Source: Eledone cirrhosa
Taxonomy: Eukaryota
Direction of reading: 5' to 3'
NCBI GenBank assembly: GCA_964016885.1
Contig: OZ024747.1
Location: 57,040,001-57,104,000 of the forward strand
DNA length: 64,000 nt
Below the pieces are notes generated by a model. The model did not search any database. It was not told the DNA's origin and saw only the letters and a program-made list of their open reading frames with translations. This document shows, one piece after another, positions 12,140 through 59,155 of this stretch (position 1 is its first letter; each line of letters starts with the position of its first letter). Both the position numbers and the translations under genes were made by a program.

Positions 12140-12389
12140 TGCCCATGCAATATCGATATAAAAAATTGTATATATGAATATATATATATATATTTCGTTT
12201 CTGAATTTGTTTAGCAAGATTCTTTATCTGAAAACGTGTGTTGAAACCGATATTGTTATGCTTTGGGAGGGTCATGTTGCCAATAAAAAACACACGCACC
12301 AGTTGCTTTCACTTCAATTTATTATAAATTAAATTTATAAATTTCCGGTTGGTTGGTTGGTTCCACAATCAGACGATTGTTCATATATT

Positions 12390-12432
12390 GTCAAAATTCT
12401 TTCGTCACACATTCTGTGACCTCTTCAGTGAC
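12390..12432 (-). ncRNA. Minimal hammerhead motif
   Basis: GUCA-CUGAAGA-G-GUCACA/UGUGAC-GAAA-GAAU-UU-UGAC. Confidence 0.6.
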
Positions 12433-12949
12433 TGGGGATTATTTTCTTTGTTTTTGTGCCTCTCCTTTGTTCTGTCCTACGCCATCTTGTTTTTGTTGTG
12501 TGCTTAGTTTGTGCATGTGTTACATCCGGGTGTCTGTGTGTGTTTATATTTGTTTATTTATTTGTTTATTTACATGTTACTGGTTGGTTGTTTGTTCTAT
12601 GTGTGTGTGTGTTTTCATTTTGTCCTTAATTGTAAGTTGTGTCTAAACATTACGTCTTTTAGAGACGCAATGTTTAGACAAATCACAGAGGCAATAAACA
12701 TAAATGAACTCCAACCAAAATTAAATAGAAAACATGAATGGAATAGCAACATCACAACTTACAATTAAGGACAAAATGAAAACACCCACACATAGAGAAC
12801 AAACAACCAACCAGTAACATGTAAATAAACAAATAAAAGCACACACAGACACCCGGATGTAACACATGCGCAAACTAAGCACACAACAAAAACAAGATGG
12901 CATAGGACAGAACAAAGGAGCGGCACAAAAACAAAGAAAAGAATCCCCA

Positions 12950-12992
12950 GTCATTGAAGAGGTCACAGAATGTGTGACGAAAGGACTTTGAC
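12950..12992 (+). ncRNA. Minimal hammerhead motif, core C3 mutated to U
   Basis: GUCA-UUGAAGA-G-GUCACA/UGUGAC-GAAA-GGAC-UU-UGAC. Confidence 0.5.
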
Positions 12993-13287
12993 AATATATG
13001 AACAATCGTCTGGTTGGGGAACCAACCAACCAACCGGAAATTTATAAATTCCTAAATTTATAAATTTAATTTATAATAAATTGAAGTGAAAGCAACTGGT
13101 GCGTTTGTTTCTTATTGGCAACATGACCCTCCTAAAGCATGACAATATATATATATATATATATATATATATATATATATATATATATATATATATATAG
13201 ATTCATATATACATACAGGCAGACACATATATACATATATACATACAGGCAGACATACATATATACATACATACATATATATGTACA

Positions 13288-13869
13288 TAGTGGCTGCCAA
13301 CTCGTTTTCAAGTACAGCCACTACTTTATATCCATGTAGGAGAACCCCTGTCGATGCGCTAAACAAGTGTGACTTTTTACTCCAGCCAGCGACTTGAAAA
13401 CTCTGGTACAAACACTACACCTGTGACAATTATTGACACATAGTGCTGGGCCCATGGTACCATGTGACGACAAGTTCAGTGAGATCTCCAGATATAAAGC
13501 AATGCCTGTGCCGTGAAGCTTTTATAGTGAGCAAAGGCACTGCACAAAGCCAGTCCCACTCTCTTAACCAAGATGATATTTACCAAAAAGAAGAACAAGT
13601 CAACATCATTGGATACCATCAGGGTTGCAGGTGTTATATCAGAGTTTTCCTTCTCCTAGAATTCTGCCTTGATTTTGGATGGCCATTGACTCTTAAGAGC
13701 TCCTTTCCCCTTTGACAGGTTTTGTTTTTAGTCCTGCTGGATGTCCAAAGTCACCCTCCTCACCAAAAAACATTGGTGGGGTTGCTAGTTTAGTCGCCAA
13801 CGACCCGACCATGGGACAGGTTGTACTGGAATACATATTATCAGTAGCACCAACTGGTGACCTGACATA
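13288..13869 (-). mobile_element. Non-autonomous retroelement family C (RTE-related), colinear copy
   Basis: High similarity to 20691-21228 and 40567-41175; fixed end next to TA-rich repeat; CTAGGAGAAGGAAAACTCTGA and GGCGACTAAA motifs recalled from RTE 5' regions; strand inferred. Confidence 0.65.
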
Positions 13870-14544
13870 AATGTATCATAAATACAAACATATATACATA
13901 CATATATATACATGCATACATACAAGCAGACATACTTACATATATACATATATAGATACAGGCAAACATACATATATACATATGTGCATACATACATACT
14001 TACATGCATGCATACATACATTCATACATACACACATATAATGTGGACATATGTATAATATATGAGTGAATATATGTATGAGTGGTTGTGTGTGTGTGTG
14101 TGTACATGCATTTAAGGAAACCCTCAAATATTGAAAACAGAAAATAAAAAAATATTTTTTCTTAAGTTTATTCAACTGTAAAATAGTTTTTTTCTGGTAG
14201 AGACAAAATGGAGGTGATGGTGGTTGTGGTGGTGTTTAAGGGTCTCCAAATGGAGTGGGGTGTAGTGAAGAGGATGGGAGTCCTTGGTGACAGTTTATCT
14301 TGGAGTAAAGGGATAAAGATAAGATAGGGTGAAAGAAAAGGAAGAGAGGGAGAGTAAGAGAAAGAAGAGATGAGGAGAAAGGGAGACAGAGAAAGAGAGA
14401 GAGGGGGAGAGAAAGAGAGAGAAATGGAGAGAGGGAGAGAGAGAGAGAGGGAGAGGGTGTTAGGAAAATAATAAAAAAAAGGAAAATGGAAATAAGGAGT
14501 TTCAGAAAAGACGAAGAAAGAGAGTGAAAGTGAAATAGTGAATG

Positions 14545-14992
14545 GTGATGGTAGTGGTAGTAGTGTCGGTTGTAGTGTTAGTGGTAGTGGTACTAGTGTT
14601 GGTTGTAGTGTTAGTGGTAGTTGTCGTAGTGTTAGTGGTAGTGGTTGTAGTGTTGGTTGTAGTGTTAGTGGTAGTGGTAGCAGTGTTGGTTGTAGTGTTA
14701 GTGGTAGTAGTGTTCGTTGTAGTGTTACTGGTAGTGGTGGTGTTAGTTGTTGTGTTATTGGTAGTGGTAGTGGTGGTGGTGGTGGTGGTAGTGGTGGTGG
14801 TGGTGGTGTTGGTTGTAGTGTTAGTGGTAGTGGTAATGTTAGTGGTGGTGTTAGTGGTAGTGGTGGTGTTAGTTGTAGTGTTAGTGTTAGTGGTAGTGGT
14901 GGTAGCTGAGGAGGCAGAGGTGGTGGTGGTGGTGGTGGTGTTGGTTGTAGTGGTGATAACTGAGGTGGTGGTGGTGGTGGTGGTGTTGGTGC
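14545..14992. repeat. (GGT/AGT/TGT)n low-complexity tract
   Basis: Trinucleotide-based degenerate repeat. Confidence 0.8.
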
Positions 14993-57121: not shown

Positions 57122-57354
57122 GTACACGTCTACTGTAAAGTGGACGTGTAGGCGCCACGGAAAAAGCACCCAGCACTCACTGTAAATGAGGTTGGTGTTA
57201 GGAAGGGCATCCAGCTGTAGAAATCAAGCCAAAATCAGTTCCTGTATGAGCAAGGCATGGTCAGCCGACCAGACACTGCCCACAACAGGACAACCCGTCT
57301 AACCCATGCTAGCATGGAAGAACGGACGTAAAACGGTGATGATGATGATGATGA
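57122..57354 (+). mobile_element. SINE family A 3' part, tail type 2
   Basis: Match to 34650-34826. Confidence 0.85.
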
Positions 57355-58078
57355 TAGATGGCGAGTTTATGATTTCACTTGTATTTCTATTTAAGTTTAT
57401 CTTGGAATAATAAAATTGAAAAAGTAAAGATTAACATGGTCAACAGTACAAAAAAGGGAATTTATTTACAGTCTAACAATTTTTTCTCTGATTAAGTTGT
57501 CTAAAAATTGCTCAACACTAGAAGCAGTGCCACTCAATTTTAAATTACGATGTTAGCTCATTCAGAACATCAGAGACTATATATATATATATATATATAT
57601 ATATATACATATATATAAATTAAATTTGAATGCATGTTAGCTTAAAATATGATGATACACTAGAAGGTTTTTGATTATGAAAAATTGTCAAAGAAATTAT
57701 ATATATAAGCTCCCAGAAACAATATGCTCAAAGCTTCATAAAAAAACTATTGATTGTTTCATTCACTGGATGATAGATAAATCTTAAAACGATGGGTAAG
57801 TGGTCAGCCTTGCTTTGGTTTCATGTTAACCATCTAGCAATGCGACAGGTGTGAGTGTGTGTCCCACAGGTGTTTCTGTTTAATTTTTCCATCTCCAGAG
57901 GCTTACATGCTCAACTCAACTTGCTTAACTATTTTTCATTGATACAACATACTTGAATCTAACACATATAAAAAATACATAATTTGTACAATGCTTTGAA
58001 GAAGAACTTAAAAATATATATATATACATGTGTATGAGTGTGTTTGTAAATATATATATATATATATATATATATATA

Positions 58079-58285
58079 GGAAAATGTTTGACCCAGACGG
58101 CAGAGCTCTAGCCGTTTCGACGGCTATTTCTGGACTAATTCTATTTTAGTCCAGAGATAGCTGTCGAAACGGCTTGAGCCCTGCTGTCGGGGTCAAACAT
58201 TTTCCTTTTACCCACTCTACTACCCTAAGTATTGAGTACTCTAGCGCGTTATGGCCCATCTGGTTCCTTACCACACCTCTTTCGT
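58079..58285 (+). mobile_element. Family P palindromic fold-back
   Basis: Same ends as 21779-21975, diverged variant. Confidence 0.8.
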
Positions 58286-58474
58286 TATATATATATATAT
58301 ATATATATATATATATATATATAGCAAATGTAGAACTATGTATAAAATGCTTGAAGAAAAGTAGAGAATAGTGTATTGAAACATGTGTAAGGAAATAAAC
58401 ATGGTTTTTTAAATGTTAGAAGTTGATTTTTCCATCAATATACTTTATATATATGTATATGTATATATATATAC

Positions 58475-58708
58475 TTTTCTGGGTAAAATTCCCGAGATCC
58501 ATGGACGAGTTCTCTCCAGCGGTCTCTGTCCCTCATTATCACTGCCATGTCCTGCGTCTCCAACAGATCAGTGTCTGTCCTTAGGGCATCAACATACGTT
58601 AACCTTGGTCTTCTTCTTCCAGTGTGTCCATATAGGGGCTCCCACAGGAGCACTGAGTGCAATGTCAACCCTGGATGTCGGTGAGCATGTCCAGCTAACC
58701 TCAGTTTT
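58475..58708 (-). pseudogene. RTE-like LINE 3' fragment
   Basis: KLRLAGHAHRHPGLTLHSVLLWEPLYGHTGRRRPRLTYVD...DRDRWRELV. Confidence 0.8.
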
Positions 58709-58916
58709 CATAGTAGTAGACCACTCGGTCCATGGGACGAGTTTGGTAGAAGTTGTTCCACAACAGTTAATCACCATTTCCGAGAACAATTGTTTCACCT
58801 TAGTCGGATCATCAGCTCGGTTAAAAAACACAAAAAAGAAAAACGAGCTGATGATCTGACTAAGGTGAAAAAATTGTTCTTGGAAATGATGAATTAACGG
58901 TTGTGGAACTACTTCT
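58709..58916. mobile_element. PLE fold-back with hammerheads at 58780-58820 (-) and 58844-58882 (+)
   Basis: CCGAG-CUGAUGA-UCC..GGU-GAAA-CAAUUG-UU-CUCGG; homologous to the 3' UTR of the EN-coding element at 48324. Confidence 0.85.
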
Positions 58917-58958
58917 CTCTTTCTCTCTCTCGCTATATATATATATATATATATATAT

Positions 58959-59155
58959 AACGAAGGAAGTGTGGTAAGGAACCAGGTGGACCATAATGCA
59001 TCCGATTACTCGATACTTTGGGTAGTAGAGTGGGTAATAGGAAAATGTTCGGGATCCCGACAGCAGAGCTCAAGCCGTTTCGACGCCTATTTCTGAGTCC
59101 AGACATAGCCGTCGCAATGGCTTGAGCTCTGCCGTCGGGGTCCTGAACATTTTCC
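58959..59155 (-). mobile_element. Family P palindromic fold-back
   Basis: Same ends as the other P copies. Confidence 0.8.

Follow-up and report, generated by a model that had tools for sequence, protein, structure and literature searches.

How does a short insertion become a palindrome that carries extra sequence at one end only? The question is raised by a 64,000-nt stretch of the Eledone cirrhosa genome (GenBank assembly GCA_964016885.1, contig OZ024747.1, positions 57,040,001 to 57,104,000; hereafter the window). A preliminary description made from the sequence had listed fifteen asymmetric fold-back insertions in it, between positions 12194 and 59155, and had ascribed them to a palindrome-generating system of hammerhead ribozymes and Penelope-like elements (PLEs). 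We analysed these fifteen, which had been picked for their asymmetry in this one 64-kb window, and conclude with high confidence that they are stubs, that is, 5'-truncated 3' ends, of several PLE families, probably endonuclease-bearing ones. We also consider it rather probable that the stubs are built anew at each insertion, by a route with two starts on one RNA.

Geometry of the fold-backs and their target tracts

Arm alignment and self-comparison revealed an inverted repeat in all fifteen intervals, with arms of 37–408 aligned columns and 76–100% identity. The arms were identical in two fold-backs and non-identical in the other 13, which is not expected of an assembly fold-back. Loops measured 1–336 nt and were no longer than 18 nt in ten of the fifteen. 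Unpaired extra sequence, here called the tail, was found at a single end in every case; the tail-less arm stops inside the element, at a position that we call the inner end. The tails, previously given as roughly 35–100 nt, measured 39–94 nt: 39 nt in 58709, 47 in 18783, 56 in 12194 and 27786, 63 in 42626 and 56880, 65 in 39625, 71 in 30789, 74 in 27487, 80 in 21779 and 58079, 81 in 42853 and 58959, 93 in 33884 and 94 in 39988 (fold-backs are named by the first position originally listed). The tail of 58709 is shortened, that of its family being about 68 nt long (48939–49006), and 27487 probably continues left to a TA run at 27461, which would give a 99-nt tail; intact tails of the fifteen measured 47–99 nt. 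After simple-repeat masking, no symmetric head-to-head palindrome was found among the local inverted repeats of the window. The others were pairs of short interspersed elements (SINEs), two nested fold-backs and two repeats flanking a TA tract.

The hammerhead cores pointed outward in all three fold-backs with a core and stems in both arms (33884, 39625 and 58709), as did those in 12194. Hammerheads or family alignment gave the arm orientation in ten of the fifteen fold-backs and in 33884; for the other four singletons we infer it from the anatomy. The set thus has the form of an inverted 5'-truncated copy joined head to head, and the earlier statement that two outward 3' ends are joined at 5'-truncated ends was borne out.

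The fold-backs were grouped into families A (12194, 27786), B (21779, 42853, 58079, 58959), C (39625, 42626), D (39988) and E (58709), with single copies at 18783, 27487, 30789, 33884 and 56880. The 33884 fold-back is a distant relative of family D, and joining the two leaves nine families. Further members, absent from the first list, were found at 31592, 19428, 39536, 59969 and 60778, together with a family E element at 48298 and an additional family, F. In all, 24 PLE-type pieces make up 11% of the window. Families A–E combined variable 5' truncation with fixed 3' ends. The inner end fell on the identical base in three copies each of families A and D, and tails measured 56 nt in two copies of A, 80–81 nt in all four of B and 63–65 nt in both of C. 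The fold-back centres and arm lengths varied among copies of families A, B, C and D.

The window has 35.6% G+C and contains 196 (TA)n runs of at least 10 nt. When such a run was sought within 10 nt of each fold-back end, ten of the fifteen had one at both ends by script and 11 by eye, because a 3-nt coordinate overlap led the script to drop 27786. At least one end adjoined (TA)n in 13, and neither end did in 30789 and 58709. Random placement of 15 intervals gave a mean of 0.078 two-sided cases and a maximum of two in 2000 trials, in agreement with the previous observation that most fold-backs abut (TA)n on both sides. No target-site duplication was seen by eye at 30789 or 58709; in the (TA)n copies such a duplication would be hidden. 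Stubs of different families lie back to back in one TA tract at 39536–40513, 42626–43043 and 58709–59627, indicating that one (TA)n tract can take up insertions repeatedly.

Two inverted repeats in the window face a TA tract from both sides. One is a 79-nt repeat (23360–23438 and 23856–23932, 92% identity) around about 420 nt of interrupted, largely mirror-symmetric (TA)n; it had no relative in the window, no hammerhead and no stem-loop, and possibly arose from fold-back repair inside the microsatellite. At the other, 59594–59681, an inverted repeat of the final 35 nt of family F lies beyond (TA)8, with ends pointing inward and 93% alike, followed by a SINE. Either another family F tail entered this tract, or the repeat is the tail-to-tail product that PMC3846280 expects when a sense RNA primes itself.

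Relationship to Penelope-like elements

The coding link comes from a 5'-truncated family E element at 48298..49006 (+), in which degenerate Hydra-type endonuclease codons (48307–48690) are followed by a 3' untranslated region (UTR) with a degenerate hammerhead at 48871, the inner-end position at 48938, a full 68-nt tail with its stem-loop, and then (TA)n. As first described, 58709 is homologous to this 3' UTR (86% over 117 nt); family E was the only one with DNA homology to the endonuclease fragment. The frame 48313–48687 had 2836 relatives at E ≤ 0.001 (best 1.1e-22) in a collection of 1.84 billion proteins, and the long ones comprised the end of a reverse transcriptase, a Cys linker and a C-terminal endonuclease. 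Among the 150 relatives listed, 53 contained the Cys linker, 41 of them with the CxCX5C spacing, which is a trait of the Hydra clade (PMC8557442); CxxC and CxH, which in that clade, characterized by no CCHH, surround the conserved E and N, were present in 143 and 131, and an upstream YRDD motif was present in two. The degenerate window copy retains CxH and one Cys of CxxC. It begins downstream of the linker; a second window fragment, near 62900, has CxCX5C. This older Hydra-type PLE fragment, at 62556–63200 (-), contains the end of the thumb region, the linker and a frameshifted endonuclease, with no hammerhead found behind it. The two endonuclease fragments span 48307–48717 and 62556–62965. 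A Neptune-type endonuclease was considered and rejected, as both the spacing of the linker and the consensuses in print speak for Hydra. One of 12 scanned relatives matched Pfam GIY-YIG, below the cut-off. Pfam gave no match for the window endonuclease, for the 12194 codons discussed below or for three tail frames, and word-indexed protein searches gave no hits with either the endonuclease fragment or the frame of family B. At 29676–29750 (-), the closing part of the profile for the PLE endonuclease was matched weakly (E about 0.003), which may be due to chance.

The preliminary description also held that 12194 keeps endonuclease codons. Its loop does contain 41 open codons ending in a stop, and these were assigned to a GIY-YIG cluster of a protein atlas at 0.82 (15% of members); they are possibly the end of an endonuclease, a lead only. 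Family A has a 1-bp stem III, no tail stem-loop and, in both copies, an ATG frame open through the tail, which suggests that it probably belongs to another clade; the atlas gave no usable match for this frame. The idea that tails are in general the N-termini of open reading frames was discarded: such frames are common by chance, and those of families C and D disagree between copies.

Type I hammerheads lie near the 3' end of the stubs. Our own descriptor found ten complete ones in the window, all in stub families, versus 0.17 in 30 shuffles. Among the fifteen fold-backs, four had a complete hammerhead and three more had a core and GAAA with a damaged or cut stem I. The four family B copies contained the 3' half only; the motif was doubtful in 27487, 30789 and 56880, and none was found in 18783. 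In form, the complete hammerheads agree with those that the supplement of PMC8557442 lists for Hydra, and also with the minimal form with palindromic loops of PMC4209133. For six hammerheads, minimum-energy folding gave no clear advantage over shuffles (z -0.5 to -2.8), and Rfam, run on the whole window, gave no hammerhead among the 150 of 283 matches listed. We rejected the notion that 5' ends pile up just upstream of the hammerhead core, which held in three of the seven core-bearing fold-backs (58709, 27786 and 42626) and not in the others. The hammerhead label given to the whole set was too broad: the motif is complete in just four fold-backs and, as far as shown, the predicted hammerhead is a passenger that would ride along uncleaved, with no part in forming the palindromes.

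A second RNA structure was shared more widely. The tails of seven of 11 families (B, C, D, E, F, 33884 and 56880) contain a small stem-loop of the pattern RCTC, 9–26 nt, then GAGY plus RC or RG, versus 0.053 in 1000 shuffles. In the six families with a known inner end, it begins 4–12 nt behind that end. This shared structure links family B and 56880 with the other families as one kind of element. As an independent check, done after the pattern had been devised, we searched the 584,131-character supplement of PMC8557442 for a 12-letter stretch of the family C stem-loop. It occurred twice: the complete Hydra-1_Ajap consensus opens with it, and Hydra-2_Ajap has it at the 3' end. This suggests that the tail may be where the next unit starts. 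Of other window motifs, five were absent from that supplement and five from the supplement of PMC13282606. Inspection of six new Hydra consensuses by eye showed the stem-loop clearly in three and loosely in two, and not in Hydra-1_Obim; in Hydra-2_Amil it lies at the 3' end. Elsewhere in the window, a tail stem-loop match at 16555–16660 (-), 83 nt ahead of a TA run, may represent the tail of one more family.

Judged from these sequence features, most stub families are probably most like the Hydra clade (PMC8557442; Penelope-13_HM, Hydra-1_Ajap, Hydra-2_Ajap and Hydra-1_Obim). Like the stubs, these elements lie in (TA)n, have a type I hammerhead with a 3–4 bp stem III and, in three consensuses, carry the tail stem-loop. 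Their endonuclease, like the relatives of 48298, has the CxCX5C linker and the CxxC/CxH motifs, and Penelope-13_HM has a 5'-truncated inverted copy at its 5' end. The (TA)n preference is common to Naiad and Neptune and so is not diagnostic. In contrast to Hydra-clade elements, the whole insertion is often just 160–530 nt long, the tails measure 56–99 nt versus the 30–40 nt given for PLEs in PMC8557442, and no window family matched the Hydra-1_Obim 3' end by eye. Animal non-LTR (long terminal repeat) retrozymes (10.64898/2026.07.22.740005) are likewise short, non-coding, hammerhead-bearing derivatives of PLE ends; they form head-to-tail arrays or monomers of fixed length, whereas the stubs are head to head with variable 5' ends. 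Window self-comparisons showed no tandem copies of stub families.

The general architecture is not new. PMC8557442 describes the inverted 5'-truncated PLE copy, a 30–40 bp tail at one end and a (TA)n bias that hides target duplications, and calls the formation of the inverted ends, the one-sided tail and the microsatellite bias unsolved; PMC8969392 gives the same description of PLE insertions. PLEs make up 6.83% of one octopus genome (PMC13282606). The earlier proposal of a palindrome-generating system was supported as regards the PLE origin and (TA)n, was right that inverted structures are established for Penelope (PMC8557442, PMC3846280), and was wrong in so far as it implied a system separate from the published architecture. 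What our analysis adds is the fixed 3' ends of each family, the variants shared within copies, the finding that either arm can be the longer one, and the joints without overlap. The longer tails, a stem-loop found across phyla whose distance from the inner end is fixed, and a set of candidate intermediates give these observations their value. The accessible parts of PMC8557442 do not mention the stem-loop or its fixed distance, and we found no description of the tail stem-loop, the no-overlap forms or twin priming of PLEs in the searchable literature; the Penelope papers of 2004–2006 or Repbase reports may note them.

Formation of the palindromes

Variants that distinguish copies fell into groups, of which 16 marked whole copies and two split copies (13:2 in family B, 1:0 in A and 2:0 in C; the count excludes family D). 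The tail-less arm reaches further 5' in 12194, 27786, 58959 and 31592, and the tail-bearing arm does so in 42853, 42626 and 39988. The insertion at 31592..31821 (+) belongs to family D and lacks an inverted repeat: a tail-less arm (31592 to about 31764, -) with a complete hammerhead meets, with zero overlap, a tail piece (+) made of the distal 57 nt, and the whole lies between TA runs.

Other copies were sought in the reads and contigs of runs X1 and X11, which come from different studies of organism A, by comparison with positions 57950–60245 at 85% likeness; run X1 may be related to the source of the assembly. Families A, B and E were abundant repeats in both runs, and the depths of A and B in X1 were within about 3-fold of that of a SINE. 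X1 contained at least four fold-back-centre joints with different letters, which link the left arm of one of the fold-backs 58079 and 58959 to the right arm of the other. Because these two fold-backs face opposite ways, such a joint represents the fold-back centre of another copy. Three family B arm-to-tail joints, the no-overlap form, were found in X1 contigs and in 85 X11 raw reads that had three starts; they enter the tail where the stem-loop has its foot, at 58208, 58214 and 58219. Raw reads also restored the full family E tail. No fold-back joints were found in runs X5 and X9, which are from other organisms and of which X9 was barely covered, and metagenome contigs did not contain an exact pattern of family B.

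Fold-back of a single complementary DNA (cDNA) explains the small loops and the shared variants, but not the longer tail-less arms or the no-overlap forms. Two independent RNAs explain the latter two, but not the small loops or the rule of one tail per palindrome. Priming at two sites on one RNA, followed by joining or fold-back, covers all of these facts. Two-sided priming and cDNA snap-back had been offered in the preliminary description as alternatives. Two-sided priming is needed for the copies with a longer or non-overlapping tail-less arm; snap-back best explains the tiny loops and nested fold-backs, and by itself does not account for every case. The two look like steps of one route.

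In that route, the element protein would cut both strands of a (TA)n tract. One freed 3' end would be extended from an outer start, the end of the tail, and the other, using the same RNA, from an inner start 56–99 nt upstream; this start would in most families lie 4–12 nt before the stem-loop at the head of the tail, which may set it. Both cDNAs would stop early. Direct head-to-head joining would then yield an inverted arm and a tail piece without overlap; alternatively, one cDNA would fold back and copy itself until it met the other, giving a lopsided palindrome with a tiny loop. We regard this particular course, in which both cut strands are primed at two fixed sites on one RNA and then joined directly or folded back, as likely, if a shade less so than the general proposal of building anew from two starts.

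LINE-1 (L1), a long interspersed element (LINE), undergoes twin priming, in which the second strand of the target starts synthesis at an internal site of the same RNA, leaving a 5' inversion. Its internal priming sites vary, and the two L1 cDNAs barely overlap; in the stubs, by contrast, each family has one fixed inner site and the overlap of the arms is usually complete. The Poseidon element PAc, studied in vitro (Frangieh et al. 2024, PMC11167929), resembles the proposed route in its AT-rich target, in the cutting and extension of both strands and in two starts that bracket the tail near an RNA stem-loop; hammerhead cleavage was not needed, and a dimer was predicted. PAc differs from the stubs in belonging to another clade and in that its starts were not linked to an inverted structure. 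In Adineta vaga, Penelope with its inverted pseudo-LTR (Arkhipova et al. 2013, PMC3846280) shares with the stubs a head-to-head inverted 5'-truncated copy, a palindromic joint and an optional one-sided tail. It is, however, low-copy and long, has 8–10 bp target duplications and was read as a product of self-priming on an antisense template, whereas the stubs are many, lie in (TA)n and in some cases lack overlap.

Several points weigh against priming of both strands on one RNA. In the PAc experiments the start sites were the same for top and bottom strands, and the one-tail rule was not reproduced (PMC11167929). Gene conversion, or two RNAs that stem from a single source locus, could also account for the variants shared by the arms, and the no-overlap copies could be later deletions. 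The one-armed insertions at 39536, 48298, 59969 and 60778 and in family F have no partner. The sample was selected for asymmetry in a single window, which contained no PLE reverse transcriptase of the stub families, and protein and Pfam searches found no coding link for family B, 27487, 30789, 56880 and 18783. The stem-loop pattern was devised after viewing the tails and the Hydra-2_Amil 3' end, so that the shuffle figure is generous; the structure is missing in family A, 18783 and (by script) 30789; and of its 13 matches in the window nine lie outside the tails or are reversed in them, near the roughly seven expected by chance. The letters between arm and tail are not known for the three arm-to-tail joints, 294 further joints lie beyond those listed, and no listed contig or read covers a whole locus or shows an empty site.

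Of the other explanations, the strongest, though we think it unlikely, is a single priming event after which the cDNA or an antisense RNA primes itself by folding back and the endonuclease cuts the intermediate at a fixed site, leaving one tail; under this view the endonuclease would recognize the stem-loop, as DNA, and cut there. Self-priming was proposed in PMC3846280 and 'EN-mediated resolution' in PMC8557442. This fits the short loops (≤18 nt in ten of fifteen), the 16:2 sharing of copy-private variants between arms and the nested fold-backs at 12640–12680 and 40037–40182. A fixed cut would give the fixed inner end and the single tail without extra assumptions, and the tail is reported to be necessary for recognition by the endonuclease (cited in PMC11167929). 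What speaks against it is the length of the arms: a fold-back copy cannot extend beyond the 5' end of its template, yet the tail-less arm is the longer one in four insertions. The three in which the tail-bearing arm is longer, and the zero overlap of 31592 and of the arm-to-tail joints, are also at odds with it. In a quite improbable alternative, one-armed stubs were made palindromic later by host repair of breaks at self-complementary (TA)n and the no-overlap forms are deletions. One-armed stubs do exist, and two repeats with inward ends lie around TA tracts (23360–23932 and 59594–59681). The fold-back centres, however, lie inside the element rather than in (TA)n, the short arm ends at one base in independent and in one-armed copies, and SINE and RTE copies beside (TA)n in the window have no such fold-backs.

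We give very little credence to the idea that the stubs are fold-back DNA transposons, or resemble transposable elements of the miniature inverted-repeat kind (MITEs), and move as ready-made palindromes. They are short, non-coding and high-copy, with inverted repeats and TA flanks, as such elements would be. Yet in none of the fifteen do inverted repeats occupy both termini, one repeat end lying 39–99 nt inside the element; centres and arm lengths vary among copies of families A, B, C and D, a lack of shared internal structure that already contradicts the idea; and hammerheads, an endonuclease-coding relative and one-armed 5'-truncated copies are present. The least credible possibility is an assembly or library artefact, with chimeric fold-back reads arising beside microsatellites. 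The window does contain a 200-N gap and long simple repeats, the arms of two fold-backs are identical, and no listed record spans a full locus. The arms of the other 13 have nevertheless diverged, down to 76% identity, the ends are fixed within families, and the raw-data comparison recovered family B fold-back joints in X1 contigs and arm-to-tail joints in X11 raw reads.

A bolder proposal, which we hold as tentative, is that twin priming is obligatory in Hydra-clade PLEs: a stem-loop shared by corals, echinoderms and the present animal would mark the junction of 3' end and 5' start, dock a second reverse transcriptase 4–12 nt upstream and in this way force exactly one tail on each two-armed insertion. 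If true, every step would be recorded genome-wide in the stubs, and the stem-loop would be the cis signal that has been missing for PLE integration. The formation of inverted ends, one-sided tails and microsatellite bias, which PMC8557442 calls unsolved, is turned by the stubs into countable predictions, namely one tail per palindrome, arms from the same RNA and no-overlap forms that end at the stem-loop, and the stem-loop is a concrete RNA element for mutation. The preliminary description further suggested that such palindromes could yield double-stranded RNA. Stubs can be dense, and the short hairpins could be filed as MITEs or as loci resembling microRNAs (miRNAs); matches of the window to Rfam miRNA models were far below the gathering scores among the 150 of 283 listed.

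Individual insertions and neighbouring repeats

In family A, the fold-back at 12194..13148 (-) comprises the tail (12194–12249, 56 nt), a tail-bearing arm (12250–12641) and a tail-less arm on the plus strand from about 12658 to 13148, which is longer by a 111-nt loop; the nested 18-nt fold-back lies at 12640–12680 and a minimal hammerhead core at 12428 (-). In the fold-back at 27786..28082 (+), the tail-less arm (27786–27984, -) is about 196 nt long and is cut 2 nt upstream of its hammerhead core; the tail-bearing arm has just 45 nt plus the tail, and the joint shows 3 nt of microhomology. The lone tail-less arm at 59969..60229 (+) contains a complete minimal hammerhead (60034), the family inner end and (TA)n. 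At 19428..19472 (-), inside (TA)n, only the distal 39 nt of the family A tail remain, and the trailing letters are ambiguous, being either the inner end of an opposite arm or part of the target tract.

The family B fold-back at 21779..21975 (+) has identical 58-nt arms, a 1-nt loop, an 80-nt tail with the stem-loop at 21904 and only the 3' half of a hammerhead. That at 58079..58285 (+) has 60-nt arms, a 7-nt loop and an 80-nt tail with the stem-loop at 58214. The tail-bearing arm is 6 nt longer at 42853..43043 (-) and the tail-less arm 4 nt longer at 58959..59155 (-), both with 81-nt tails. In family C, 39625..39962 (+) has 136-nt arms (98%), each with a complete Hydra-type hammerhead, a 2-nt loop and a 65-nt tail with the stem-loop at 39903. 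At 42626..42837 (+) there is a 22-nt duplication at the joint, the tail-bearing arm begins just before the hammerhead core (42694), and the 63-nt tail contains the stem-loop.

The family D fold-back at 39988..40513 (+) combines a 48-nt tail-less arm with a long tail-bearing arm that has a hammerhead core at 40320, a nested inverted repeat (40037–40074/40145–40182) and a 94-nt tail with the stem-loop at 40427. A lone tail-less arm of this family, at 60778..60950 (-), has a complete hammerhead (60872). Its relative at 33884..34318 (-) has 168-nt arms (98%), a 6-nt loop, complete hammerheads in both arms (34072, -; 34223, +) and a 93-nt tail with the stem-loop at 33967, and its inner end is homologous in place to that of family D. 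The family E fold-back at 58709..58916 (-) has an 18-nt loop; both arms begin 7–10 nt upstream of the hammerhead core, which is complete at 58815 (-), and the right flank is (CT)n. Its tail is cut to 39 nt beside a separate abundant repeat (58480–58700), whose depth is near that of family B and which probably cut it. Family F, at 59181..59627 (+), is a one-armed 3' end between TA runs with a tail stem-loop at 59537; its hammerhead is complete, with a long stem II (59377–59482), and matched Rfam Hammerhead_1 with 20.3 bits, below the gathering score of 34.

Among the singletons, 18783..19040 (-) has a 47-nt tail, 66-nt arms, a 79-nt loop and (TA)n on both sides; neither a hammerhead nor a tail stem-loop was found in it, and its anatomy suggests a PLE origin. 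The fold-back at 27462..27650 (-) has 37-nt arms, a 13-nt loop and a degenerate tail stem-loop. The old fold-back at 30789..31050 (+) has 77% identical arms, an 8-nt loop and a 71-nt tail, and the older one at 56880..57070 (+) has 76% identical arms, an 8-nt loop and a 63-nt tail with the stem-loop at 57020; a lone tail-less arm of the latter family, at 39536..39607 (+), ends at (TA)n.

Between two TA runs, 296 nt at 19116–19411 (+) contain a hammerhead-like core (19325) with a 3-bp stem I, below our descriptor, and are probably another one-armed PLE 3' end. The frameshifted 3' part of an RTE-type LINE starts at a TA run and occupies 19513–20700 (+), with a Pfam RVT_1 match (E 4.7e-13) and a PHD-like finger; a related fragment lies near 22850–23100. 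At least two abundant SINE-like families occur in both orientations across 6533–62314 (for example at 27247–27461, 46909–47136 and 59688–59855), and these explain the remaining local inverted repeats.

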